From: an uncultured Eubacteriales bacterium
GTDB taxonomy: Bacteria; Bacillota; Clostridia; TANB77; RGIG9151
Length of the DNA stretch: 28,700 nucleotides
Assembly (NCBI GenBank): GCA_964475435.1
Contig: CAYYWT010000004.1
Coordinates: forward strand, 1-28,700
Reading direction: 5' to 3'
The position numbers and the translations under genes were made by a program. The notes beneath the pieces are model-generated. The model made no database searches, was not told the origin of the DNA, and saw only the letters and a program-made list of their open reading frames with translations. Of this stretch, positions 3,176-27,559 are shown piece after piece (position 1 is the first letter of the stretch; the number at the start of each line of letters is the position of its first letter).

Positions 3176-3237
3176 TTTTACTATATGAAAATCGCTACAT
3201 TTAATTACTTTTTGAGTTAAAAGATTATACTTTTTAG

Positions 3238-3266
3238 TTGACTTTACATAAAAAATATAGTATAAT
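3238..3266 (+). promoter_or_regulatory. near-consensus sigma-A promoter of the toxin-like gene
   Basis: TTGACT (3238-3243), 17-nt spacer, TATAAT (3261-3266). Confidence 0.7.
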
Positions 3267-3351
3267 GAAAAAGTTCAATAAAAATGAACTAGGCAATATG
3301 TAATTACATATGCCAAAAATCCAATTAAATTTATTTTAAAGGAGAACAGCT

Positions 3352-5664
3352 ATGAAAAAAATCGTATCGCTTATTCTAACTATCGTAATGGTATTAGGTT
3401 GTGTACCGCTTACAGCTTTTTCGGCAGATTTAAAAGGATTAATGCCGGAAATTGTTTACAAAGATAACGATGATTATCTTTTTGTAGACGGAAAGCGTGT
3501 AGACTTAGAAGGAGAAATATTTGATTACAGGCATCCCCAAAAGAACTATATTAACACATATGTACCGGTTAAATTTTTTATAGAACTTGCCGGTGGTGAA
3601 CTTACTTCTTGGGAACATACAAGCAAAATAGCAAAGTTTACTATTAGCCGAACAAATATTGAAATTGATTATAAAAATAGTACATACAGTATTGATGGTG
3701 TAAAAGATAGTCTTATGTTTGAACCCATCATAAAAAATGATGTACTATATTTATCTCAAACTGATTTGTTTGTAAAAATATTTAATGTTTATTGGAGTAA
3801 CTTATTGCATAACGACAACGGGTATATGCACATATATGACTATGATATACCATGGGAAGATTATAATAATGATATAGAGCATAATTTAATTGACTCCTTA
3901 TACAACTCTAAAAATACAACTGAAATAACATCCGGCACATTATATGTTTCAGACGGAACGCATCTATACAACCGAGTTTCAGACACAACTTCTTCATTAG
4001 GCTATACAGATAATTATGTATATACTTTAAGAACACTATATGATGAATTATGGATTAATGATGAAGAACAATTTATATCTAAAGGGGATTATTTGTACGA
4101 TACAAACAATAAGCCTCAATATGCAAGCATAGCTATACTAAAAGCATGTGATACCCGTATTGGTGAACTAAAAAATTATGTTGAAAAAAGCATAATTAAA
4201 GCGTATAGTAATCTTGAGATTACCGAAGACTACAAAAATCTGTTACTGACCAATGAAGTAAATAATGTAATAAACGAATACTTCGACGTAAAGAGAGCTG
4301 AGAAAAAATTTAGCGAAGTAAGTGAACAAACGAGCACTTACGAACTCAAAACAGGTTCAACCGGAGAAAAAGTAACTAAAATTCAGCAAAAACTTTATGA
4401 GTTAGGCTTTTCCGACCAATTAGTTACCGGAGAATATGGAAATATTACAATTTGTAATGTGGCATATTTTCAATCAATAAACGGTTTAGACGTTACAGGT
4501 TGGGTAGATAGTGAAACTTACACCAAAATCTTAGGAACAGATGAAACCATAGTTAACGTAGAAGACACAACACCATACGCATATCCTACAAATTTACAAG
4601 AAGGTATGGAAGTAATAAAAGGAAGCTATACCGTAAACGTAGTAGGAAACGAGCATTGCGACGGAATAAGACTTAATATGTACAGCACAACAATGTTTAA
4701 TGACGGATTATCCGAATGGTATAACTTTGACGGAAATGATGTTAGTGCGACATTCGACTGTACAGACGTAGGTTATTACACGTTAATGGTAGAAACTCGA
4801 AACGACACAACCGGAGAAACAGCTCAATACGCAATAGACTTTAACGTAGTAGATACAACAACCGGAACAGATTTATTAGCATATTTTATGCTTGGAATAT
4901 GGGACGGAGTAGTAGATACAGGAAAAGGTCTATGGAGTACAGTTGCACATCCGGTAAAGTCAGCAAAAGATTTAGGAAGCGGAATATCTTTCTTAGCCAA
5001 AGCATTAACCCCTTGGGGAGGAGAAGAAAGACAAGCGATACTAGACCTTTGGGTAACGTTAAGCTATGACATAGTAGACGGAGTAGTAGCCAGAGAAGCA
5101 AAAGAAACAGCAAGGTCTCTAGGAAAACTTACCGCAGAAATCTTGATAGCAGTAGCTTTAGAAAAAGGAGCAAGCAAAGCAGTAGAAGCCATAAAAGAGT
5201 CTGCAAAAACCGGAAAACTTAGCAAAGTCGGAAAGGCTTGGGTTAAGGCAAAGGATAAAGTAGACGATTTTGTAGTGGAACTGACAGGTAAATTGGGTTT
5301 ATCTTCCATTTTCAAAAATGGTAAGATAAGCATAGATGACATTAAAGCTAATCCTAATGTATTTTCAGGTAAATCAGTAGATGAAATTGCTGACGCTCTT
5401 AAAGATGTTGGATACGAAGTAAAAGTAAGAGGCTCTAATTATCCTGAAAGTAAAGCTCAGATTATTAAAATTACTAATACGGGCGCAGGTAGAAACATTG
5501 CTCAAGTACAAGTATCTCCTGGTGGAGGTCGGCACGGTGAATTACCATATGTAAAAATTAGCACAACAGACCAGGGTATAATTAAGATAGTAGATGGAGT
5601 AAAAAGTATGTATAAAACAGACGGAAAAGAAACGGCAACAATTATTTTTACAGGAGGAAATTGA
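3352..5664 (+). CDS. secreted multidomain polymorphic-toxin-like protein: signal peptide, copper-amine-oxidase-N-like domain, PG_binding_1 domain, unassigned C-terminal domain
   Basis: AGGAG RBS. Signal peptide MKKIVSLILTIVMVLGCVPLTAFSA. VDGKRVDL...YVPVKFFIELAGGEL resembles the Cu-amine-oxidase N-terminal domain. GSTGEKVTKIQQKLYELGF...AYFQSINGLDVTGWVDSETY is a peptidoglycan-binding domain 1 signature. Then a helical A/K/E-rich linker and a ~110-aa C-terminal domain of unknown family. Confidence 0.85.
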   Translation: MKKIVSLILTIVMVLGCVPLTAFSADLKGLMPEIVYKDNDDYLFVDGKRVDLEGEIFDYRHPQKNYINTYVPVKFFIELAGGELTSWEHTSKIAKFTISRTNIEIDYKNSTYSIDGVKDSLMFEPIIKNDVLYLSQTDLFVKIFNVYWSNLLHNDNGYMHIYDYDIPWEDYNNDIEHNLIDSLYNSKNTTEITSGTLYVSDGTHLYNRVSDTTSSLGYTDNYVYTLRTLYDELWINDEEQFISKGDYLYDTNNKPQYASIAILKACDTRIGELKNYVEKSIIKAYSNLEITEDYKNLLLTNEVNNVINEYFDVKRAEKKFSEVSEQTSTYELKTGSTGEKVTKIQQKLYELGFSDQLVTGEYGNITICNVAYFQSINGLDVTGWVDSETYTKILGTDETIVNVEDTTPYAYPTNLQEGMEVIKGSYTVNVVGNEHCDGIRLNMYSTTMFNDGLSEWYNFDGNDVSATFDCTDVGYYTLMVETRNDTTGETAQYAIDFNVVDTTTGTDLLAYFMLGIWDGVVDTGKGLWSTVAHPVKSAKDLGSGISFLAKALTPWGGEERQAILDLWVTLSYDIVDGVVAREAKETARSLGKLTAEILIAVALEKGASKAVEAIKESAKTGKLSKVGKAWVKAKDKVDDFVVELTGKLGLSSIFKNGKISIDDIKANPNVFSGKSVDEIADALKDVGYEVKVRGSNYPESKAQIIKITNTGAGRNIAQVQVSPGGGRHGELPYVKISTTDQGIIKIVDGVKSMYKTDGKETATIIFTGGN

Positions 5665-5665
5665 T

Positions 5666-6097
5666 ATGGAAGTAGATATTAATGCACCAATAATTCCATA
5701 TGAAGGACTAGGCGGAATAAAACTATACAGTACGCGTGAAGAACTAAAAGATATTTTGCAAAGCAAAGGCGTAAAAAAGCATATATATGATGATTGGATT
5801 GAGTATCATATTCAAGATAAAGTAGCATTAACCTTTAGCTTATCAAACGAAAAACTATTAAGAATTACTACATTAGATGGGTATAAAGGAATGCTATTTG
5901 GAAAAATATATGTTGGTATGCCTGAAGAAGAATTACCTAAAGTAGATAACTCATTTGTATATAATGATTTTGAAGAATTTTGGGAATCTGATAAAGGAAT
6001 ATCCATTGCAACTGATGTTATTACACACAAGATTGTATGGATAGCTGTATATATTTCAGAATGGTATTCGAAAGATTTCGAGGAAGGAAATTGGTAA
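5666..6097 (+). CDS. putative cognate immunity protein (hypothetical, cytoplasmic)
   Basis: ATG lies 1 nt after the toxin stop codon. Its AGGAGG RBS (5652-5657) sits inside the last toxin codons. 143 aa, acidic, no signal peptide. The function is inferred from position only. Confidence 0.75.
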   Translation: MEVDINAPIIPYEGLGGIKLYSTREELKDILQSKGVKKHIYDDWIEYHIQDKVALTFSLSNEKLLRITTLDGYKGMLFGKIYVGMPEEELPKVDNSFVYNDFEEFWESDKGISIATDVITHKIVWIAVYISEWYSKDFEEGNW

Positions 6098-6138
6098 AAA
6101 CTATTTAGAGGAGAGTCAACTTGGCTTTCCTCTTTTTT
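6098..6138 (+). terminator. intrinsic terminator, copy 1 of a 41-nt duplicated cassette
   Basis: AGAGGAGAGTC / GGCTTTCCTCT stem, AACTT loop, T6 run. The whole 41-mer is repeated exactly at 6509-6549. Confidence 0.8.
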
Positions 6139-6163
6139 GCGAAATTGATGACAAAACGTTTAG

Positions 6164-6191
6164 TTGACAAAAATAAAGCATATGTTAAAGT
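6164..6191 (+). promoter_or_regulatory. promoter candidate for the barstar-like gene
   Basis: TTGACA (6164-6169), 16-nt spacer, TGtTAAAGT extended -10 (6183-6191). Confidence 0.45.
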
Positions 6192-6214
6192 AATAAAGAT
6201 AGGAGATTGAGATT

Positions 6215-6505
6215 ATGGAAAAAATTATATTGGACGGCACAAAATTTGTGGATATTGATACAACTCATAAAATTTTAAAAGAAGTATTTGAATTCCCAGA
6301 TTATTATGGAAAAAATCTTGATGCGTTTTGGGATTGCATAACGGACTGTACGAGTGACTGGATTAATGGAGAGAATGCTAAAATAATATGGAAGGATTTT
6401 GCTATAAGTAAAAAGAACTTAGGAGATTATGCAGAAACTCTTTTAGAACTTTTTATAGAGGCAAAAGAAAAATATGGTGGTTTTACAATTGAGGTAATTC
6501 CATAA
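6215..6505 (+). CDS. barstar family (barnase/RNase inhibitor) immunity protein
   Basis: FPDYYGKNLDAFWDCITD aligns with the barstar core LPEYYGENLDALWDCLTG. The length (96 aa) and N-terminal beta-strand pattern also match. Confidence 0.9.
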   Translation: MEKIILDGTKFVDIDTTHKILKEVFEFPDYYGKNLDAFWDCITDCTSDWINGENAKIIWKDFAISKKNLGDYAETLLELFIEAKEKYGGFTIEVIP

Positions 6506-6508
6506 GAC

Positions 6509-6549
6509 AAACTATTTAGAGGAGAGTCAACTTGGCTTTCCTCTTTTTT
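6509..6549 (+). terminator. intrinsic terminator, copy 2 of the 41-nt cassette
   Basis: Exact repeat of 6098-6138, starting 3 nt after the barstar-like stop codon. Confidence 0.8.
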
Positions 6550-6553
6550 AGTG

Positions 6554-9135: not shown

Positions 9136-10311
9136 ATGAACGTAAAACAATCATTTAAATTGGCTATAAAAAGCATTTTAACAAGTAAGTTTAGGTCATT
9201 TTTAACTATGCTCGGAATTATAATCGGTGTAGCTGCGGTTATTGTACTGGTAAGCTTGGTAGACGGCTTTTCTAAGGATATGACTTCTTCATTTGAATCT
9301 CTTGGAACTAATTTAATAACGGTAAGTGTTATGGGGCGAGGAAGCAATACAAAGATTACTCCGACAGATATGATGAATTTCGCAAGTGAAAATGATGATG
9401 TTATATCTGCGGTTTCTCCGCTTGTTACTGTATCGGCCACGATAAAGCACGGCAGTGAAAATTTAACTTCTACTGTATATGGTGCAAGTGAATATTATGA
9501 TACTATAAAAAGTTATGAAATAGAGAGTGGAAGATTTATTCAGTATATAGATATTGAAAAACGTCAAAAGGTTTGCGTTATAGGAAAGTACATAGCGAAT
9601 GAATTATTCCCAAGTGGTGAAATTATTGGAGAAGATATAAAGATAAATGGCGAGAAATATACCGTTGTTGGGGTTATTAAAGCTAAACAAGATGCTGAAG
9701 AGGGAGGAGCTGATGATATGTTGGTTATCCCATATACTACAGCATCAAGATTATCTCGAATGGCATCAGTTTCGAGTTATAGCTTTAGTGCGACTGATAA
9801 AGATAGTGTTAGTGAGGCACAAAATAAGATAGAAACATATTTATTTAGTGTATTTGGTAATACGAATTATTATAATGTGTACAATCAAGCTGACTCACTT
9901 GAACAAATTAACGAACTTTCAAGTACTTTAACTTTAGTTTTAGTTGGAGTTGCAGGGATATCTTTATTAGTTGGTGGTATAGGAATTATGAACATAATGC
10001 TTGTATCTGTTACGGAAAGGACTAGGGAAATAGGTATAAGAAAGTCTTTAGGCGGTAAACGTAGGGATATTTTGTTACAGTTCGTAATTGAAGCCGGAAC
10101 TACAAGTGCGTTGGGTGGAGTTTTAGGAATTGTATTTGGTTGTGTAGTAGCTTCTTTTGCAGGTAAATTATTGGATATGACGACGGTTATATCAGTTAAT
10201 GCGATTGTAATTGCGTTTTCTGTATCGGTTGGAATCGGAATTATATTCGGATATTTTCCGGCGGCTAAAGCGTCAAAACTTAATCCGATAGATGCGTTAA
10301 GACATGATTAG
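9136..10311 (+). CDS. ABC transporter permease, MacB periplasmic domain plus FtsX domain
   Basis: N-terminal TM helix, large extracytoplasmic domain, and C-terminal FtsX-type helices with RTREIGIRKSLGG and PAAKASKLNPIDALR. Confidence 0.93.
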   Translation: MNVKQSFKLAIKSILTSKFRSFLTMLGIIIGVAAVIVLVSLVDGFSKDMTSSFESLGTNLITVSVMGRGSNTKITPTDMMNFASENDDVISAVSPLVTVSATIKHGSENLTSTVYGASEYYDTIKSYEIESGRFIQYIDIEKRQKVCVIGKYIANELFPSGEIIGEDIKINGEKYTVVGVIKAKQDAEEGGADDMLVIPYTTASRLSRMASVSSYSFSATDKDSVSEAQNKIETYLFSVFGNTNYYNVYNQADSLEQINELSSTLTLVLVGVAGISLLVGGIGIMNIMLVSVTERTREIGIRKSLGGKRRDILLQFVIEAGTTSALGGVLGIVFGCVVASFAGKLLDMTTVISVNAIVIAFSVSVGIGIIFGYFPAAKASKLNPIDALRHD

Positions 10312-10341: not shown

Positions 10342-12171
10342 GTGAAGAAGATATTTATTATGTTATTGACTTTTGCAATGTTTACTAATTTTTCTTTTGC
10401 CGAGAACATATCAAAAGACGATGTTTCGCTTATATTAAGCGGAATGGAGATAATAGACGGTACTAATGAAACTGATAATACTATTACAAGAAAGGAACTT
10501 GCAAAGCTTTTAGTAAAAGCGTCAACGAATGCAACACTTGCTAATGCGACAAACAGAATTTCTGTATTTGCTGATGTACCGTATAATTTTGAAGATGCCG
10601 GATATATAAGATTGGCAGCATTAAACGGGTATTTAACAGCATATTCTGATGGCGAATTTAAGCCGTTTAATGTAGTAAAAAATGAAGAGGCTGTGACTGC
10701 TACGTTAAAATTATTGGGATATACCAATAAAGATTTTACTCAGTCATATCCGTATGAGCAATTGTCTATTGCTAAAGATATAGGACTTACAGACGGAGTA
10801 GATACTACGATAGGAAGTAATGTTACAAGAGAAAATTTATATAGATTAATATATAATGCATTATCTTGTAATTCTAAATCTACCGGTAAAAAATATATAG
10901 AAACATTAGGCTATACTTTGACATCTTCAACAGTAGCTTTAGGAGATGTTATGTCGAAAAATATAGAAGGCCCTATTACGTATGTTGATAGTAGTATATA
11001 CGATTTAACAGGGTTATATAGTCCAACAGTTTATATAAATGGCGAAAAAAGTGATGTGGAGGATTTAGAGCGTTATGACGTTTTATATTATAGCCAAAAC
11101 AGTAACGCTATTTGGGCGTATAGGGAAAAAGTAACGGGAATGGTTGAAGTGATTTCTCCAAACAAGGAAGCTCCGACATCCGTAACTATTTCCGGTAAAA
11201 CATACAAATTGTCTACATATTCTGCCCAAAAAGCTTTTGGTGTATCGGGAATTAGCTTAGGAAATATGGTTACTGTTTTATTGGATAGAAATAGTGAAAT
11301 ATCTGATGTTTATAAAACGGAAGATTTATACTTTGAACAAGTCGGAGTAATATTATCTACCGGTAAAAAAGAAAAGATGCAAACTGATGGAAATACTAAG
11401 GTTACATATTATGCTACGGTATTACTTTCAACAGGAGAGACAATGGATGTTTCAACGAATACAAATTACAGTAAGAAGGTAGGATATACAGCTAAAGTTT
11501 CCTATAAAAACGGTAAAGTTTCAATATATTCTACAAGTAAGACAACTGATATTTCGGGTTTATTTGATTTAGAAAATAAGACGATAGGAAGTAAGAATAA
11601 GATAAGTGATAAAATAAAGATATTGGAAGTTGATGAGTTTGGTAATACTGAAAAAATATATTCCAATAGATTAAATGGAGTTTACTTAAATAAGGAAGAT
11701 GTTGCCTTGGTTACTAAAAACAGTAAAGGCGAAATAGAGAGTATGATAATAAAAGATGTTACCGGAGATACGGCGAAATATGGAATCTTGGAAAGTATAA
11801 ATGAAAGACAAGATAGTGAATCATATACTTGTATAGTCGATGGTAATTCTACAACTTATTCAAATAATGAGATTTCGTTTTCAGTAGATAAAGGACCGGT
11901 TCAGATATATTTAGATGGTCAATCTTTAGGAAAGATTAAGAATTTAGAAAAGGTTGAGGGAAGTATTGTAAATGTAAATAATTCATATGCTGAAAATTCA
12001 AAAGGCGAAAAACTTAAAGTTTCGAGTGATGTAGTGGTTTACGTTAGAGTTAATTCGGAATATAACTTGTCTACAATGGATGAGGCTATGAGTGGAGAAT
12101 ATAATGTTTCTGCATATTACGATAAAACCGAGAGAAACGGTGGAGCTATAAGATTGATTATAATTTCATAA
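10342..12171 (+). CDS. S-layer homology (SLH) domain cell-wall-associated protein
   Basis: GTG start, signal peptide MKKIFIMLLTFAMFTNFSFA, SLH-like segments (ITRKELAKLLVKA; FADVP...GYIRLAALNGYLTAYSDGEFKP). The remainder is unassigned. Confidence 0.85.
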   Translation: MKKIFIMLLTFAMFTNFSFAENISKDDVSLILSGMEIIDGTNETDNTITRKELAKLLVKASTNATLANATNRISVFADVPYNFEDAGYIRLAALNGYLTAYSDGEFKPFNVVKNEEAVTATLKLLGYTNKDFTQSYPYEQLSIAKDIGLTDGVDTTIGSNVTRENLYRLIYNALSCNSKSTGKKYIETLGYTLTSSTVALGDVMSKNIEGPITYVDSSIYDLTGLYSPTVYINGEKSDVEDLERYDVLYYSQNSNAIWAYREKVTGMVEVISPNKEAPTSVTISGKTYKLSTYSAQKAFGVSGISLGNMVTVLLDRNSEISDVYKTEDLYFEQVGVILSTGKKEKMQTDGNTKVTYYATVLLSTGETMDVSTNTNYSKKVGYTAKVSYKNGKVSIYSTSKTTDISGLFDLENKTIGSKNKISDKIKILEVDEFGNTEKIYSNRLNGVYLNKEDVALVTKNSKGEIESMIIKDVTGDTAKYGILESINERQDSESYTCIVDGNSTTYSNNEISFSVDKGPVQIYLDGQSLGKIKNLEKVEGSIVNVNNSYAENSKGEKLKVSSDVVVYVRVNSEYNLSTMDEAMSGEYNVSAYYDKTERNGGAIRLIIIS

Positions 12172-12172
12172 A

Positions 12173-12402
12173 AGAGGTTGTAAAAAACTTGTTTATTATT
12201 TGAATAAAGCGGTGTACTATACCAAGAGAGACAAAAATTGCTTTTTTGTCCCTCTATGTAAAACACATTTTAAAGGTGCCCAGGATGTGAGCGTAAGCTC
12301 CGTTCCGTCCTTTAACTTAGCACTACACTTTCCACAAAAAATATTTTTGTTGAGCGAGGTATAGTACACCGCTTTATAAATTTTATGTTTTTTACAATCT
12401 CT
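12173..12402 (-). ncRNA. copy 1 of a ~230-nt structured intergenic repeat (candidate ncRNA or MITE-like element)
   Basis: Outer stem AGAGGTTGTAAAAAAC (12173-12188) / GTTTTTTACAATCTCT (12387-12402). 18-bp P2 12206-12223 / 12358-12375. Invariant core 12277-12308. Strand inferred from G-U versus A-C asymmetry. Confidence 0.6.
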
Positions 12403-12487
12403 TTTTTGCAATCCTATTACACTTTTATTATGAAATTTGTAAAATTTGCCGATAAACTTTATGCATTTTGTAGAATGGAGGAAGATT

Positions 12488-13660
12488 ATGGAGAATTTTA
12501 CGATTTTTTTGGATTTGGCTATAATTTTATTTTTTGCAAAGCTTTTTGGATTATTGGCAAATAAGATCGGTATACCGTCGGTAGTAGGAGAAATTGTTGC
12601 GGGTATAATTATTGGCCCAACTGTATTAAATTTTGTTGGCCCGAGTGATTTTTTGATTGAGATGGCGGAAATTGGTGTTATTTTGTTGATGTTTTTGGCG
12701 GGGCTTGAAACTGATTTAAATGAATTAAAGAAAGTTGGATGGACTTCGGCGTTAATTGCCGTGTTTGGAGTAATGTTGCCACTGATTGGAGGAGCTTGGT
12801 TATATATTGAATTTTATAAAGTTCCTTTTTATGATAGCGTTGAATTATTAAAAGCTGTATTTTTAGGCTGCGTATTGACTGCGACTTCTGTTAGCATAAC
12901 TGTTCAAGTTTTAAGAGAAATGGGAAAACTTAGAGGTAAGACGGGTACTGCTATTATGGGAGCAGCTATAATTGACGATGTTATCGGAATTGTACTTTTG
13001 ACATTTATTTTGGGAATAAGAGATTCATCAGTTTCGCCTGTAAATGTTATATTAAAAACAATGTTGTTCTTTGGCTTTGCTCTTGTTATTGGGCTTATTG
13101 CGTATTATGTTTTTAGAAAGATAAGTGATTTCTTTCCTAGAACTAGAAGAATACCGATAGCCGGATTAGCACTATGTTTTTTACTTTCCTATATTGCGGA
13201 AGTATGGTTTGGAGTAGCGGATATTACTGGAGCGTATATTGCCGGAATAATTTTGTGTAATATTCGTGATGCTAAGTTTATTGCGAATAAGCTTGATGTT
13301 AATTTATATATGCTTTTTGGACCGATATTTTTTACCAGCATTGGTTTTAAAACAGAGATTTCGTCTATTAGCAAAGATATGTTGATTTTTTCGGTTTTGT
13401 TTGTTTTAATTGCTTGTATTACAAAAATTATCGGGTGTGGGTTGGCGGCTAAAGTATGCAGGTTTAGTTGGAAAGATTCGCTAAAAGTCGGAGTCGGTAT
13501 GATGAATAGGGGCGAAGTTGCTTTAATTATTGCTCAAAAGGGAGTGGCTACCGGTTTGCTTGATCCTGTGTTTTTTACCCCGGTTGTTTTAATGATTTTA
13601 TTTGCTGCGATTATTACTCCGATAGGGCTAAAATTGTTATATAACGGAGAAAAAGCGTGA
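12488..13660 (+). CDS. cation:proton antiporter (CPA2 / Kef-NapA type)
   Basis: Polytopic membrane protein beginning MENFTIFLDLAIILFFAKLFG...PSVVGEIVAGIIIGP, with LMFLAGLETDL, typical of Na_H_Exchanger proteins. The ATG at 12488 has GGAGG upstream; the ORF-track start at 12446 does not. Confidence 0.9.
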   Translation: MENFTIFLDLAIILFFAKLFGLLANKIGIPSVVGEIVAGIIIGPTVLNFVGPSDFLIEMAEIGVILLMFLAGLETDLNELKKVGWTSALIAVFGVMLPLIGGAWLYIEFYKVPFYDSVELLKAVFLGCVLTATSVSITVQVLREMGKLRGKTGTAIMGAAIIDDVIGIVLLTFILGIRDSSVSPVNVILKTMLFFGFALVIGLIAYYVFRKISDFFPRTRRIPIAGLALCFLLSYIAEVWFGVADITGAYIAGIILCNIRDAKFIANKLDVNLYMLFGPIFFTSIGFKTEISSISKDMLIFSVLFVLIACITKIIGCGLAAKVCRFSWKDSLKVGVGMMNRGEVALIIAQKGVATGLLDPVFFTPVVLMILFAAIITPIGLKLLYNGEKA

Positions 13661-13682
13661 GTAGGTTTTATAAAAAATTAAT

Positions 13683-13923
13683 AAAAGGAGCTGTAAAAAT
13701 ACTCGTTTATCATTTTAATAATGTATTGTACTGTACCAAGTGAAACAAAAATTGCTTTTTTTGTCTCTCTATGTAGAACATATTTTAAAGGTGCCCAGGA
13801 TGTGAGCGTAAGCTCCGTTCCGTCCTTTAACTTAGTACTACACTTTCCACAAAAAATATTTTTGTAGAACGAGGTACAGCACAATACATTATGAATTTTA
13901 TGAGTATTTTTACAGCTCCTTTT
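13683..13923 (-). ncRNA. copy 2 of the structured intergenic repeat
   Basis: Perfect 22-bp outer stem 13683-13704 / 13902-13923, P2 13720-13737 / 13872-13889, invariant core 13792-13823. On the - strand it starts 9 nt after the stop of the 13933-14517 gene. Confidence 0.6.
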
Positions 13924-13932
13924 TCAACCTCA

Positions 13933-14517
13933 TTAAACGCCTTTTATTATCTTTATCCTTTCTTCTAAATATATCTTTTTTAAATTCGGACCTGTAATTA
14001 CAGGTTCTATTCCTTTTTCTGCGACTTCTTTGTATACTCTTTCAGTTGCATGTTCCGTTGCTGGGTGTATAAAATGGTTTTCTTTACTTTTCCATTTTGT
14101 AATTGCGTTTTCCCAGTAACTAAGTTGGTATTCTTTAGTCCAAGTATCCTTTTTATAATTCATTCCTGCGGATAAAGTATCACATAATAGCTCAACCCAA
14201 TAATTATATGGCATTAATTTTGCTCCACAAGGTTCTTTGGGATCAATCCAATATTCCAGATGATGTTTGTTGTGTTTTATATGGTGATTCCAAGCGTTGG
14301 AATAGCCTTTTTCCTTTTTGCAAGCTAAAATTGGGCTTTGCGTACCGCCGGTATAGTAGTGGATTGATTCGAAAAGTTCAGCCGGAGAGAATTTAGATAA
14401 GTCGTGTGTAATTCCTTGAAATGGGATGCCTGCTTGCTTTGCCAGGTTAAATACCAGCTTTTTATGGGCAAGTACAGTTTTGATATGGGAAGATGCTTTA
14501 AAGAAGAAGTTGTTCAT
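13933..14517 (-). CDS. hypothetical protein with His-rich HD-like motifs (resembles the DUF5662 family)
   Basis: ITHDLSKFSP...SPI...NAWNHHIKHNKHHLEYW motif block. Start placed at the ATG at 14517 (MNNFFFK), which has GGAGG 5 nt upstream. The family name is from memory and unverified. Confidence 0.8.
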   Translation of the reverse strand: MNNFFFKASSHIKTVLAHKKLVFNLAKQAGIPFQGITHDLSKFSPAELFESIHYYTGGTQSPILACKKEKGYSNAWNHHIKHNKHHLEYWIDPKEPCGAKLMPYNYWVELLCDTLSAGMNYKKDTWTKEYQLSYWENAITKWKSKENHFIHPATEHATERVYKEVAEKGIEPVITGPNLKKIYLEERIKIIKGV

Positions 14518-14582
14518 TTTTGCCTCCAAAAACTTATATAAAACAAATTATATAATAGATATTATGAAAAAATACAAGCAAT

Positions 14583-14611
14583 ATTCTAACATTTTGTATA
14601 CATAATGTCAA
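14583..14611 (-). promoter_or_regulatory. near-consensus promoter for the 13933-14517 gene
   Basis: On the - strand: TTGACA (14606-14611), 17-nt spacer, TGtTAGAAT extended -10 (TAGAAT = 14583-14588). Confidence 0.6.
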
Positions 14612-14661
14612 GAAATGGCTTTGAAAAGTAAAGTTTATAAGTGAAAATGTGAAAAAATCTC

Positions 14662-14690
14662 TTGTATATTTTTTTCGACTGTGGTATGAT
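14662..14690 (+). promoter_or_regulatory. promoter for secG-rnr
   Basis: TTGTAT (14662-14667), 17-nt spacer, TGgTATGAT extended -10 (14682-14690). Confidence 0.6.
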
Positions 14691-14732
14691 AATAAAGTTG
14701 ATGAGTATAATAATTTGGAGGTCGAAATAATT

Positions 14733-14972
14733 ATGGTAAAAACAATATTGTTAGTTTTACACGTTATCGTATGTTTATCTCTTATCTTAATAGTTATTCT
14801 TCAATCTGGAAGAAGTGCTGGTATTTCCGGAGAAATTGCCGGTGGTGCTGAAACGTTTTTTGGTAAGAATAAAGCTAGAACGTTAAATGGAATGCTTGGA
14901 AGATGGACTACTTATGCTGCTATTATTTTTGTTATTACTTCTTTAGCGTTAACTATTTTTTGGAATGCTTAA
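14733..14972 (+). CDS. secG: preprotein translocase subunit SecG
   Basis: 79 aa, two TM helices flanking LQSGRSAGISGEIAGGAETFFG. GGAGG upstream of the ATG at 14733. The ORF-track N-terminal extension is rejected. Conserved secG-rnr neighbourhood. Confidence 0.9.
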   Translation: MVKTILLVLHVIVCLSLILIVILQSGRSAGISGEIAGGAETFFGKNKARTLNGMLGRWTTYAAIIFVITSLALTIFWNA

Positions 14973-15028
14973 TTTTTGATGCAAAAGGGCCTTATTATAG
15001 GCTCTTTTCTATTTTTGGAGGTTAAAAT

Positions 15029-16963
15029 ATGAATTTATTGATAGAGGGTATTTTTGAAGCTAACGAAAGAGGGTTTGGTTTTGTAATTCCCGATGATGAG
15101 AATGAAACTGATATTTTTGTAGCTCCTGCGGATATAAAAGGAGCTTTTGACGGAGATAGAGTTGAGGTAAGAGTTTTATCAATGGGAGATGAGAAACGTG
15201 GCCCTGAGGGGATTATAACTAAAATTATTGAAAGAAATCATAAAAAGATAATTGGAAAATTTGAGAAGAGTAAGAATTTTGCTTTTGTTGTTCCTAATAA
15301 TAAAAAAATAACTCAGGATATTTTTATTCCTAAAGCGTATTTTGGGGGAGCTAGAAATAATGAAATTGTTGCGGTTGAAATTATAAAATGGCCGGAGGGG
15401 AGAAGGACGGCTGAAGGAAAAGTTGTGAAAAGGCTTGGAAAACTCGGAAAGCCGGGAGTGGATGTCTTATCAATTATGTACGAGCATGATTTAACGGAGG
15501 ATTTTCCTGTTGAAGTATTGGAACAAGTTGAAAAAATACCGGATACTCTTAGTAAAAAAGATTACAAAGGGCGAAGAGATTTAAGAGATATAAGAATGGT
15601 AACTATTGATGGAGAGGACGCTAAAGATTTAGATGATGCGGTTTCTATCGAAAAATTACCCGGTGGGAATTTCTTATTGGGTGTTCATATTGCTGATGTT
15701 TCTCATTATGTAAAAGAAGGAAGTCCGTTGGATAAAGAAGCTTATGAACGTGGAACGAGTGTTTATTTAGTAGATAGAGTTATTCCTATGTTACCTCGAA
15801 AGCTTTCTAATGGATTATGCAGTCTTAATATGGGGGAAGATAGGCTAGCTTTTTCTGTTATGATGAAGATTGATAAGACGGGTAAAATTATAGATAGTGA
15901 AATATTTAAGAGCGTTATTAATGTAAATGAGAGAATGAATTATTCTGATGTAACGAAGATTTTAGAAAATACTGACGAAAAAGTTGTTGAGAGATATAGG
16001 GAGTTTGTACCGGATTTTAAACTTATGGAGAAGCTATCTAGTATTTTAAGGAAACGTAGAACTATGAGGGGAAGTGTTGATTTTGAAATCCCTGAGGCTA
16101 AAGTTATATTGAATAAAGAAGGAAAGCCGATAGAAATAAAAAAGTATGAATTAACTGTTTCTAATAATATAATAGAAGATTTTATGTTGGCTGCTAATGA
16201 AACTGTGGCTGAAAGGTTTTTCTGGCTTGAAGTTCCGTTTATGTATAGAGTTCATGACTTACCGGATACTGAAAAACTAGAGGAGTTTTCTAAGTTTATT
16301 TATAATTACGGCTATAAAATAAAGGGATTAACTCAACTTCAACCTATGGCTTTTCAACAATTATTAGAAGATGTAAAAGGTAAGCCTGAGGAGAGAATTA
16401 TTTCTACGTTAATGTTAAGATCTATGCAGCAAGCAAGATACAGTCCGACTAATACTGGACATTTTGGCTTAGCTGCTCAGTATTATTGCCATTTTACTTC
16501 GCCAATAAGACGTTATCCTGATTTATTTATTCATAGAGTTATGAGCGAATTAATTGAAAATGACTATAAATTTAGAAGTGATAAACACGAAAAGAAACTT
16601 AAGAAAATTGCGGTTGAAGGGTCTAAACATTCTTCAGATAAGGAAAGGGAAGCTCAACTTGCCGAAAGAGATTCTGTTGATCTAAAAAAAGCGGAATATA
16701 TGAAGGATTTCGTTGGTGAAACATTTACAGGCGTTATTTCTTCGGTTACTTCTTTTGGATTTTTTGTTGAACTTGATAATACGATAGAAGGACTTGTTAG
16801 AGTAGAAAATATTGAAGATGATTACTATGTATATAATGAAAAACAGTATTCTTTAATAGGAGACAGGAAACACAAGGTATATAAGCTAGGGGATATTGTT
16901 GAGGTTGTTTTAACAGGAGTAAATTTAGAAACAAGGAAAATTGATTTTGGTATAAAAATATGA
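15029..16963 (+). CDS. rnr: ribonuclease R
   Basis: N-terminal cold-shock-like GFGFV, RNB catalytic block TIDGEDAKDLDDAVS...HIADVSHYV and HFGLA..YCHFTSPIRRYPD, and a C-terminal S1 domain (GVISSVTSFGFFVEL). Confidence 0.95.
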   Translation: MNLLIEGIFEANERGFGFVIPDDENETDIFVAPADIKGAFDGDRVEVRVLSMGDEKRGPEGIITKIIERNHKKIIGKFEKSKNFAFVVPNNKKITQDIFIPKAYFGGARNNEIVAVEIIKWPEGRRTAEGKVVKRLGKLGKPGVDVLSIMYEHDLTEDFPVEVLEQVEKIPDTLSKKDYKGRRDLRDIRMVTIDGEDAKDLDDAVSIEKLPGGNFLLGVHIADVSHYVKEGSPLDKEAYERGTSVYLVDRVIPMLPRKLSNGLCSLNMGEDRLAFSVMMKIDKTGKIIDSEIFKSVINVNERMNYSDVTKILENTDEKVVERYREFVPDFKLMEKLSSILRKRRTMRGSVDFEIPEAKVILNKEGKPIEIKKYELTVSNNIIEDFMLAANETVAERFFWLEVPFMYRVHDLPDTEKLEEFSKFIYNYGYKIKGLTQLQPMAFQQLLEDVKGKPEERIISTLMLRSMQQARYSPTNTGHFGLAAQYYCHFTSPIRRYPDLFIHRVMSELIENDYKFRSDKHEKKLKKIAVEGSKHSSDKEREAQLAERDSVDLKKAEYMKDFVGETFTGVISSVTSFGFFVELDNTIEGLVRVENIEDDYYVYNEKQYSLIGDRKHKVYKLGDIVEVVLTGVNLETRKIDFGIKI

Positions 16964-17026
16964 AATTAAATTAGAAGTGACTGTAAAAAGTTTTCCTTAA
17001 TGTTATTGACCGAAGGTCAACATAGC

Positions 17027-17258
17027 GGGGCTGTAAAAAAACTCATAAAATTCATAACGTATTGTACTGTACCTCGCTCACCAAAAATATTTTTTGTGGG
17101 AAGTGTAGAGTTAATTTAAAGTACGGAACGGAGCTTACGCTCACATCCTGGGCAACTTTAAAATGTGTTCTACATAGAGGGACAAAAAAGCAATTTTTGT
17201 TTCGCTTGGTACAGTACAATACGTTATTTAAATAATAAACAAGTTTTTTACAGCCCCC
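17027..17258 (+). ncRNA. copy 3 of the structured intergenic repeat (inverted relative to copies 1 and 2)
   Basis: P1 17027-17042 / 17243-17257 followed by T7 (17259-17265). P2 17056-17073 / 17208-17225 (perfect 18 bp). Invariant core 17123-17154. Lies 63 nt downstream of rnr on the same strand. Confidence 0.6.
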
Positions 17259-17273
17259 TTTTTTTAAAACTAA

Positions 17274-17302
17274 TTGAATTTATTGACTAGAACATATATA
17301 AT
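17274..17302 (+). promoter_or_regulatory. promoter candidate for radC-mreBCD
   Basis: TTGAAT (17274-17279), 17-nt spacer, TATAAT (17297-17302). Confidence 0.5.
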
Positions 17303-17351
17303 ACTTAGAGAAATATTTTTAGCTAAGGACCGGTTAGCAGATGGAGGGAAA

Positions 17352-18041
17352 ATGAGTTCGTTAATTATGAAGGAAAAACCGGTTTCTGAGCGACCATATG
17401 AAAAATTAGAGACTAACGGAGCTAAAAGCTTAACTAATGCGGAGCTTTTGGCGATTGTATTAAAAACCGGTACGAAAGATGAGACGGCGTTAGATATTGC
17501 TGAAAGATTACTTGTTGAATGTATTGGAGAAGATGCGGGATTTACTTTGGCTAATGTATCGCTTGAAGAATTAAAGACTATAAAAGGTATTGGACGTGTT
17601 AAAGCGATTACTTTAAAAGCTGTGTTTGAGTTGGCGTGTAGATTTAATGCTAATGAAAATGATAAAATGTTTTTGGGAGCTACTTCATTACTTGCAGGAT
17701 TTATTATGAGTAAGTTGGCTAATGAAAAACAGGAAAAATTTATGGTAATTGGTTTGGATACGAAATGTAGATTGGTTAGAAGTGATATTATTGCTATTGG
17801 TAATTTAAATCTTATTAATTTAAGTGCAAGAGAGGTATTTAGAATGCCGATTGAGTGTGGGTGTAAGTATTTAGCGCTTGCTCATAATCATCCAAGCGGT
17901 GATCCTACGCCGAGTAAAGAGGATATTGAGTCTACGCTTAAGTTAATCGAGATGAGTAGATGGCTTGAAATTACGCTTATAGATCATATTGTTGTAGGAA
18001 ATGGAAATTATATTAGTTTTAAGAAAAATAAATTGTTTTAA
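17352..18041 (+). CDS. radC: RadC-like JAB domain protein (UPF0758)
   Basis: ERPYEKL, helix-hairpin-helix segment [15 protein letters not shown] motif [16 protein letters not shown]. The ATG at 17352 follows GGAGGG. Position upstream of mreB is conserved. Confidence 0.9.
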
Positions 18042-27387: not shown

Positions 27388-27559
27388 GTTACAGGTCAGA
27401 TTTAATTACTTATCAAAAGATAATATCATTAGTTTTCCCGCTCAAACACGTCCTCGGTAAAAAATTCGATTAAATTTTTATTTTGAATTTTTTACCTGTG
27501 GAACTCGCTCTTTAAACTAATGATATTATCTTTCTAAAATAAGTTGGCTGAATAGTAAC
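27388..27559 (+). repeat. expanded palindromic element, same family as 329-384, probable terminator of the helicase gene
   Basis: Starts 6 nt after the stop codon. Ends GTTAC...GTAAC. Perfect 14-bp stem 27419-27432 / 27517-27530 and 12-bp apical stem 27456-27467 / 27485-27496. About 117 nt of extra sequence relative to the short copy. Confidence 0.7.

Follow-up and report, generated by a model that had tools for sequence, protein, structure and literature searches.

The first 28,700 nt of contig CAYYWT010000004.1, from an uncultured Eubacteriales bacterium of the class Clostridia (assembly GCA_964475435.1), hereafter the window, carry three copies of an intergenic element of ~235 nt that folds back on itself into a long hairpin. 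With a probability of roughly 60%, we read this element as an interspersed, non-coding foldback repeat of the kind represented by miniature transposable elements with inverted repeats (MITEs), REPINs and SPRITEs, which lies just after stop codons, where it probably acts as a transcription terminator, and which is no dedicated RNA gene. The family behaves as mobile, or at least as unstable and amplifying, DNA, its mobility being suggested by its distribution, and it is restricted to a small set of species among the uncultured Clostridia ("Eubacteriales").

Three copies of one foldback element

The copies lie at 12170-12408 and 13683-13923 on the forward strand and at 17027-17265 on the reverse strand. 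Their pairwise identity is 87-90%, with a mean column identity of 89% in the three-way alignment, and a 31-nt core occurs three times in the window, against no occurrence expected in 100 shuffles. An earlier note on this DNA had placed the copies at 12173-12402, 13683-13923 and, inverted, 17027-17258; sequence and alignment agree with these locations, although the boundaries needed correction because the element includes a few more bases of the A-run and T-run on its flanks. Its claim that the copies are no plain recent duplication also stands. The parts of the three copies and a segment beside copy 3 are as follows.

12170-12408, + strand: copy 1, full length, canonical orientation, from A-run and clamp AAAAGAGG through clamp and T-run TCTCTTTTTT
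12204-12248, + strand: 5' arm of copy 1, P2 strand AAAGCGGTGTACTATACC followed by the first A/T hairpin; partner of 12333-12377 (inverted repeat I5)
12278-12308, + strand: invariant core of copy 1, GCCCAGGATGTGAGCGTAAGCTCCGTTCCGT, with a 9-bp hairpin capped by GUAA
12333-12377, + strand: 3' arm of copy 1, second A/T hairpin followed by P2 strand GGTATAGTACACCGCTTT
13683-13923, + strand: copy 2, full length, in canonical orientation, flanked by the converging genes for the Na+/H+ exchanger and DUF5662
13793-13823, + strand: invariant core of copy 2
16977-17021, + strand: extra segment beside copy 3, present in the window and in the related locus L005, lacking in the related locus L012
17027-17265, - strand: copy 3, full length, inverted, in the interval from RNase R to the RadC promoter
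17123-17153, - strand: invariant core of copy 3

The element consists of two imperfect inverted arms of ~70 nt around an asymmetric, highly conserved centre of ~85 nt. From the outside inwards, an arm comprises an A/T-run, a G/C clamp of 4-5 bp, (C)TGTAAAAAACTCG, an asymmetric A/T internal loop, the 18-bp helix P2 and an A/T hairpin; the two A/T hairpins are also able to pair with each other. The centre holds the short helices P3 and P4 and the 9-bp hairpin with its GUAA cap. Read from the sequence, P1 of copy 3 is GGGGCTGTAAAAAAAC / GTTTTTTACAGCCCC and P2 is AACGTATTGTACTGTACC / GGTACAGTACAATACGTT, with 18 perfect pairs, and the helices that had been described before (P1, a perfect 18-bp P2, an A/U hairpin and a hairpin with a GCAA loop) were all found in this way. 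Copy 2 has the form of a bidirectional terminator, with AAAAGGAG on the left, CTCCTTTTT on the right and perfect arms of 22 nt (inverted repeat I14). The + strand of copy 3 ends in ACAGCCCCC, followed by TTTTTTT. The TAA stop codon (12169-12171) of the upstream open reading frame (ORF) of 609 amino acids falls in the A-run of copy 1. The minimum free energy (MFE) of copy 1 is -86.7 kcal/mol on the + strand and -84.4 kcal/mol on the - strand, compared with an average of about -42 kcal/mol for shuffles, which corresponds to z = -10.8 and -10.3, respectively. Scans for tRNA and tmRNA genes (ARAGORN) and for tandem repeats (TRF) returned nothing relevant.

The outer clamp follows the pattern AAAA-GRRG / CYYC-TTTT. 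The left clamp, in canonical orientation, is rich in purines in every case (GGGG, GGAG, GAGG, GAGC, GAAG, GGGA, ATGG or GTGG) and the right clamp in pyrimidines, so the clamps look like variants of one sequence that belongs to the element. We had considered that the element might sit inside the loop of diverse host terminators, with the outer stem being host DNA; the consistently purine-rich (GRRG) left clamp led us to reject this as a general rule, and at the RNase R site the idea is ambiguous.

Complementarity is maintained in the arms

Structure and covariation were assessed on an alignment of 11 copies. In the RNAalifold structure, columns 27-95 pair with columns 180-242, giving arms of ~70 nt each, and 97% of the cells pair. 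Nine pairs carry double-sided changes; column shuffles give 3.4 +/- 1.2, with none of 500 attaining nine, and slid controls give 0-2. Seven of these pairs are in P2, one is in P1 and one lies beside the core, where columns 125/153 pass from C-G through U.G to U-A. Between copies 1 and 3, each P2 arm differs at five positions and all five differences are complementary, exactly as the earlier note had it, and the base of P1 differs in each window copy yet pairs (GAGG/TCTC with one G.U in copy 1, GGAG/CTCC in copy 2, GGGG/CCCC in copy 3). The complementarity of the arms is actively maintained. Several of the double changes are private to single copies (w_c1, w_c2, L004, L008 and L007a), and a parsimony comparison of copy 1 with its orthologue at the related locus L034 and with the consensus, over few sequences, suggests that two compensated changes arose in place in the lineage of the window.

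Across the 11 copies no variation occurs in the A/T hairpins, in P3, in the core hairpin or in most of P4, so these inner helices offer no covariation evidence either way. The closing pair of P4, whose change from G-C to U-A had been put forward as compensatory, is G-C in two copies, U-A in four copies of a single subfamily and mismatched in the remaining five, and this part of the argument fails once more copies are included. The proposal that selection, or correction, acts on a folded nucleic acid is partly supported: further homologues bring significant double-sided changes, eight of the nine confined to the arms, which speaks for the long arms and not for a discrete multi-helix RNA, whose inner helices are invariant. 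The outer pairs of P3 are A.C on the canonical strand and hence G.U on the opposite one, and the two G.U pairs of the core hairpin are valid on the canonical strand only. The difference in MFE between strands is of mixed sign from copy to copy, giving no strand preference, and the asymmetry of G.U against A.C in the arms, at 9 versus 5 columns, involves too few columns to decide. Per-copy MFE ranges from -60 to -101 kcal/mol, which implies that some copies have decayed arms.

Copies follow the stop codons of housekeeping genes

The copies lie directly after stop codons, in either orientation. Where the 3' end of a gene abuts a copy, the gap from the stop codon is 0-63 nt, and in several cases the stop codon lies inside the TAAAAG end of the element; the exceptions are L003, L001 and L004, which lie close to the start of a gene or at a distance of 299 nt. 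With respect to the upstream gene, about five copies are in sense and about six in antisense orientation (convergent sites counted both ways, and antisense including L006b, which has degenerate ends). Two copies stand between convergent genes, and in seven others, each with one abutting gene 3' end, the T-run is on the transcription-downstream side. The neighbours are housekeeping genes, encoding RNase R, DEAD-box and UvrD helicases, Ham1, glycogen phosphorylase, an ABC-3 permease and an NrnA-like DHH protein, together with the SLH-related 609-amino-acid ORF and the Na+/H+ exchanger. A promoter scan gave no promoter-like site in the centre; the terminal TTTACA is a possible outward -35 box at copy 1 and is not general across copies.

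Most probably, when the upstream gene is transcribed, the terminal stem and the adjacent U-run would act as an intrinsic terminator or a protective 3' hairpin, often in both directions, and the orientation of the copy would be immaterial because the stem is palindromic. The hairpin itself, as single-stranded DNA during mobilisation or as RNA in the terminator, is most likely what selection sees, as proposed for REPINs. Alternatively, the complementarity of the arms could result from arm-to-arm correction within the palindrome.

The family is confined to a few sister species

The earlier note had not recognised the element as a known RNA family, and searches of Rfam at three sensitivities gave nothing credible: Rfam 15 returned no hit at gathering score over the whole window; at E <= 10 over 12000-17500, all matches had E > 0.25, far below gathering score, and none lay within a copy; and copy 1 alone, searched with the laxest filters, produced matches that all had E > 0.25 and were again far below gathering score. 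The element had no blastn match in plasmid and phage collections, and in scans of viral contigs neither the core nor the terminus pattern had any match. The search beyond the window that had been called for did yield further copies. When 22 nt of the core were scanned against GTDB, each species being represented by one genome, the sole match was a metagenome-assembled genome (MAG) of an uncultured Eubacteriales bacterium, CAYZJZ01, which is ~87% identical to the window over 6.9 kb and holds ten exact-core copies on eight contigs, many of them at contig ends. Fragments, orthologues and shortened versions (minis) were found in relatives, whose contigs were gathered via neighbouring proteins, an nhmmer profile of the element being run over all fetched loci (designated by L and a number). 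Two genomes together contain at least 13 full copies, other genomes add fragments and minis, and the short-read contigs of the window's own strain also break at copies.

The nhmmer profile found no copy in ~20 kb around the RNase R gene of L012-L014, whose RNase R is 92% identical, or in more distant relatives, and L028-L030, with RNase R 87-92% identical and contigs that end just past the gene, showed no element ends. A scan of JGI metagenomes with a 20-mer of the core gave two matches, of which the one examined lies in unrelated DNA of ~48% G+C; both are restricted to the ~25-nt core and were therefore taken as chance. When the reverse-strand frame of the element was compared by phmmer with 1.84 billion protein representatives, a single 50%-identity cluster, P0322, was found at 66% identity. 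P0322 is evidently another copy of the element that was translated, and the finding of this single cluster points to a family confined to few sister species.

Copies are present, absent or shortened at the sites of relatives

At the RNase R-RadC site, L012 and L014 have a spacer of 122 nt with a plain terminator, GAAGTGGAC-ATTA-GTCCAC-TTTTTTT, exactly at the position of copy 3, and their T-run and RadC promoter align with the window from 17259 on. In the window and in L005 this position is occupied by the element and ~60 nt of extra sequence. Within the extra segment are GTGACTGTAAAAAG (16977-16990), which resembles a terminus, and TTGACCGAAGGTCAA (17007-17021), a small hairpin; the segment may be a remnant of an earlier insertion. 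Also near copy 3, GAAGTGAC resembles the left half of the L012 terminator stem GAAGTGGAC, a likeness that hints at an older insertion into the loop of that terminator.

At the site of copy 1, L032 (~91% nucleotide identity, same gene order) lacks window positions 12187-12429 and keeps AAAAGTGGTTGTAAAAACTC, with the right flank partly gone, which looks like an imprecise deletion; the end of its contig is the start of a copy-2 orthologue. L034 and L035 (~85-88% identity) have a 5'-truncated copy-1 orthologue with the same right junction, and in L034 a PIN toxin-antitoxin pair, together with an arm from a second repeat family, stands in place of the left half of copy 1. The copy-1 orthologues of the window and L034 are ~88% identical, like their flanks. 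Relatives thus show filled and empty sites, the RNase R-RadC spacer being empty in L012 and L014 and copy 1 absent in L032; the boundaries of these sites are imprecise, so deletion and insertion are not separable.

Minis of ~60-70 nt, which consist of the termini and parts of the outer arms only, occur at L004:1762-1830, L008:2436-2497 and L034:14630-14689, and their differing deletion end-points indicate that they arose independently. Separately, the SecG-RNase R spacer of L015, a relative at 80% identity, has at 9920-9985 a long bidirectional terminator hairpin beginning with TTGTAAAAAACTTGT, an exact 14-nt match to the terminus that copies 1 and 3 of the window have; this match may be chance, or the hairpin may be a distant relative of the minis. 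Across the family, copy-to-copy identities span 84% to 99.5%: a subfamily of the copy-3 type, present at four loci in two species, has identities of 96-99.5%, and other pairs are 84-91% identical.

Open frames on both strands

On the reverse strand, all 11 copies have an open frame of 64-81 codons; on the forward strand, seven of the 11 have one of 65-71 codons. In the window, one such frame spans 17026-17232 (+), with equivalents in every copy. Both strands are open for at least 69 codons in only 0.1% of dinucleotide shuffles, and gene callers elsewhere have predicted such an ORF (P0322). The third codon positions of the two strands' frames coincide, and variable columns are spread 17/21/25 over the codon positions, with no third-position excess. 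No start codon or ribosome-binding site is conserved across copies, copy 2 is frameshifted yet open in another frame, and the frames have no match in Pfam or NCBIfam at E <= 10. We rejected a coding role for the two long open frames on the missing start signal, codon-position bias and family match.

Weighing the interpretations

Several observations weigh against a terminator-like mobile repeat. The orthologue of copy 3 (L005:3515-3755) is 99.5% identical to it, compared with ~87% for the coding flanks, and an old insertion that had decayed neutrally does not explain this; the candidate explanations are selection, gene conversion by a master copy and insertion more than once at this site. The first A/T hairpin block is 98% identical across copies versus 80-86% for P2, the reverse of the classic MITE pattern, where the arms are conserved above the centre, and the centre may therefore serve a separate function. 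No consistent direct repeat emerged from a scan for target-site duplications over 11 copies (boundary shifts of 0-13 nt, repeats of 2-8 nt), the flanks continuing the inverted repeat rather than duplicating a target. No transposase was seen near any copy, and none of the fetched loci, ~300 kb that were not searched systematically, revealed a RAYT, which leaves the distribution of the copies as the argument for mobility. A stem that encloses ~200 nt is atypical for an intrinsic terminator, and at the copy-1 site of L032 there is no hairpin at all, which suggests that a terminator there is dispensable. A different view of the same family, which we consider improbable though worth keeping in sight, makes the conserved asymmetric centre (the first A/T hairpin and the GUAA-capped core hairpin) a functional module, either a recognition structure for an undescribed mobilisation system or a cargo in the form of a structured RNA or a res-like site. 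It would also explain why copy 3 is 99.5% identical when the genes around it are at 87%, and the mobilisation system could then be a REPIN/RAYT-like one in Clostridia, dependent on hairpins and single-stranded DNA and leaving no target-site duplication.

Among the explanations that part with a mobile repeat, we attach the most weight, while still thinking it unlikely, to a host-domesticated element, comparable to REP/BIME sequences or to a co-opted SPRITE, whose immobile copies are kept as bidirectional terminators, stabilisers of mRNA 3' ends or insulators, the complementarity of the arms reflecting host-level selection at each locus. Copies 1, 2 and 3 are indeed kept at orthologous sites in species 85-91% identical, the arms of copy 1 are still perfectly paired despite a difference of ~12% from the L034 orthologue, which implies compensation in place, the T-runs are on the downstream side of genes, and copy 2 is the sole hairpin between two convergent genes. 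Such a host function fits poorly with the decayed arms of several copies (MFE -60 to -72 kcal/mol against -101 kcal/mol for the best), with the loss of copy 1 in L032, which gained no replacement hairpin, and with near-identical copies at unrelated loci, which speak for recent amplification; nor does a terminator need a conserved centre of 85 nt, which the minis do without. A dedicated structured non-coding RNA (ncRNA) of ~230 nt, with a four-way junction and an invariant core acting in trans or in cis and with the copies as paralogous RNA genes, appears doubtful. It would account for the very stable fold (z of about -10.5), for a centre conserved above the arms, for the invariant core, in whose GUAA-capped hairpin both G.U pairs work on the canonical strand only, for the C-G to U.G to U-A path beside the core, and for the divergent copy P0322 keeping the core peptide YGTELTLTSW, that is, the core sequence. 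Against it, the copies lie in both orientations relative to the only plausible transcription and have no internal or conserved upstream promoter; the inner helices lack covariation, with the P4 closing pair mismatched in 5 of 11 copies; the G.U pairs of outer P3 are on the opposite strand from those of the core hairpin, and the folding energy has no strand preference. The element is, moreover, lost, truncated or reduced to core-less minis in relatives, is confined to a handful of sister species (with one cluster in 1.84 billion protein representatives as a proxy), and matches no Rfam family.

The two remaining explanations carry far less weight. An inverton, in which the arms are recombination sites and the centre flips to control the neighbouring genes, would draw on the long inverted repeats around an asymmetric segment of ~85-130 bp, on the inversion of copy 3 relative to copies 1 and 2, and on the terminus kept by L032, whose next 16 nt fit the opposite orientation. 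We consider it very improbable, because copy 3 is inverted as a whole, including the asymmetric internal loops of its arms and not the centre alone, the centre has no promoter-like site, the independent assemblies L005, L011 and L031 share the orientation of the window, and most copies are downstream of genes rather than upstream. We give slightly less credence still to a small protein encoded by the open frames: the rarity of such frames in shuffles and the prediction of P0322 by gene callers are set against the coding tests above and against a single cluster among 1.84 billion representatives.

The family has consequences for work on this lineage: it breaks short-read assemblies, yields spurious ORF calls of 55-80 amino acids on both strands and probably supplies terminators for many housekeeping genes. 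It represents, in one uncultured Clostridia lineage, a clean case of a foldback repeat that retains the complementarity of its arms, in part at single loci passed on vertically. Its decay into ordinary-looking bidirectional terminator hairpins of ~60 nt suggests one route by which terminators may derive from selfish DNA.

Other repeats and neighbouring features

The window also contains a second, unrelated foldback family, with a 172-nt element at 27388-27559 (ends GTTAC...GTAAC, internal perfect inverted repeats of 20 nt) and a 56-nt mini at 329-384 that corresponds to the two ends joined, in the opposite orientation. An arm of this family follows the 609-amino-acid ORF in L034 and L035 (L034:11840-11875), beside the inserted PIN toxin-antitoxin pair. 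The barstar gene (6215-6505) is bracketed by two identical 41-nt terminators, AAACTATTTAGAGGAGAGTCAACTTGGCTTTCCTCTTTTTT, at 6098-6138 and 6509-6549, and belongs to a 3.4-kb block (3176-6553), absent from the syntenic L032, that also holds a PG (peptidoglycan)-binding protein of 770 amino acids and a 143-amino-acid ORF. In L017, a more distant relative whose RNase R is 76% identical, a different short palindromic repeat, GGACAGCATGAATGCTGTCCGTAC, occurs at least four times around RNase R (positions 1-120 and the last 130 nt of the locus) and looks REP-like.

Comparison with known systems

Elements of the ERIC, Correia and RUP type are small, AT-rich and non-coding MITEs with terminal inverted repeats, which form long RNA stem-loops, are often co-transcribed at gene 3' ends in both orientations, affect mRNA processing or termination, occur as longer and shorter variants and sometimes contain open frames, a profile that the present element resembles (Delihas 2008, 2011; PMC2229807, PMC3184786). 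Like classic MITEs, it is a small (below ~300 bp), non-coding, multicopy sequence with terminal inverted repeats (imperfect arms of ~45-70 nt) and with filled and empty sites, although it is longer than most. Classic MITEs differ in having target-site duplications, often of TA, and inverted repeats that match a resident insertion sequence; the 11-copy scan found no flanking duplication here. Tn3-derived TIMEs are of similar length, with terminal repeats of ~40 bp, and a gene can be enclosed by two copies, a situation comparable to that of the exchanger between copies 1 and 2; they may also carry an internal res site, which would explain the conserved centre. Tn3-family repeats, of 38-40 bp, begin with GGGG and end near TAAG, to which the GRRG at positions 1-4 of the arm and TAAAG/TAACG at positions ~32-36 may correspond. 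However, the defining 5-bp target-site duplication of the Tn3 family was not found for the present element, its GGGG clamp varies between copies, and the gene order around the exchanger is kept in relatives that lack copy 1, which argues against a recent composite transposon.

REPINs, doublets of REP sequences that form hairpins and are mobilised by RAYT tyrosine transposases (Bertels and Rainey 2011; PMC3116915), resemble the element as non-autonomous hairpin repeats in which compensatory changes across the hairpin are common, which are inherited vertically and live long in their lineages, and which lack a classic target-site duplication. The compensated inverted units of REPINs have their counterpart in the nine double-sided pairs described above, eight of them in the arms. 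REPINs differ in their size (~70-110 nt), their hundreds of copies, their ends as the most conserved part, their link to a single-copy RAYT and their description mainly from Proteobacteria (PMC3116915), whereas our element is ~235 nt long, is most conserved in its centre and is present in far fewer copies (at least ten in the MAG).

The SPRITE of 2011 (PMC3049150) likewise is an AT-rich interspersed repeat of a Firmicute, with AAAA...TTTT termini and a U-rich tract behind a long duplex; it lies near the 3' ends of coding sequences with enrichment between convergent genes, has no established target-site duplication and no known transposase, is restricted to one species group and has been proposed to be co-opted as a terminator. 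The long duplex with its U-rich tract, the AAAA/TTTT termini and the placement at 3' ends and between convergent genes all recur in the element described here. SPRITE is, by contrast, a simple structure of ~105 nt with a duplex of 18 bp (PMC3049150), and the present element, in another host lineage, has ~235 nt, arms of ~70 nt, a G/C clamp and a conserved asymmetric centre of ~85 nt. Given the different host and length, homology with the pneumococcal SPRITE is unlikely, the two being compared by description only. We read the element as a new family of a known kind rather than a new class of ncRNA.

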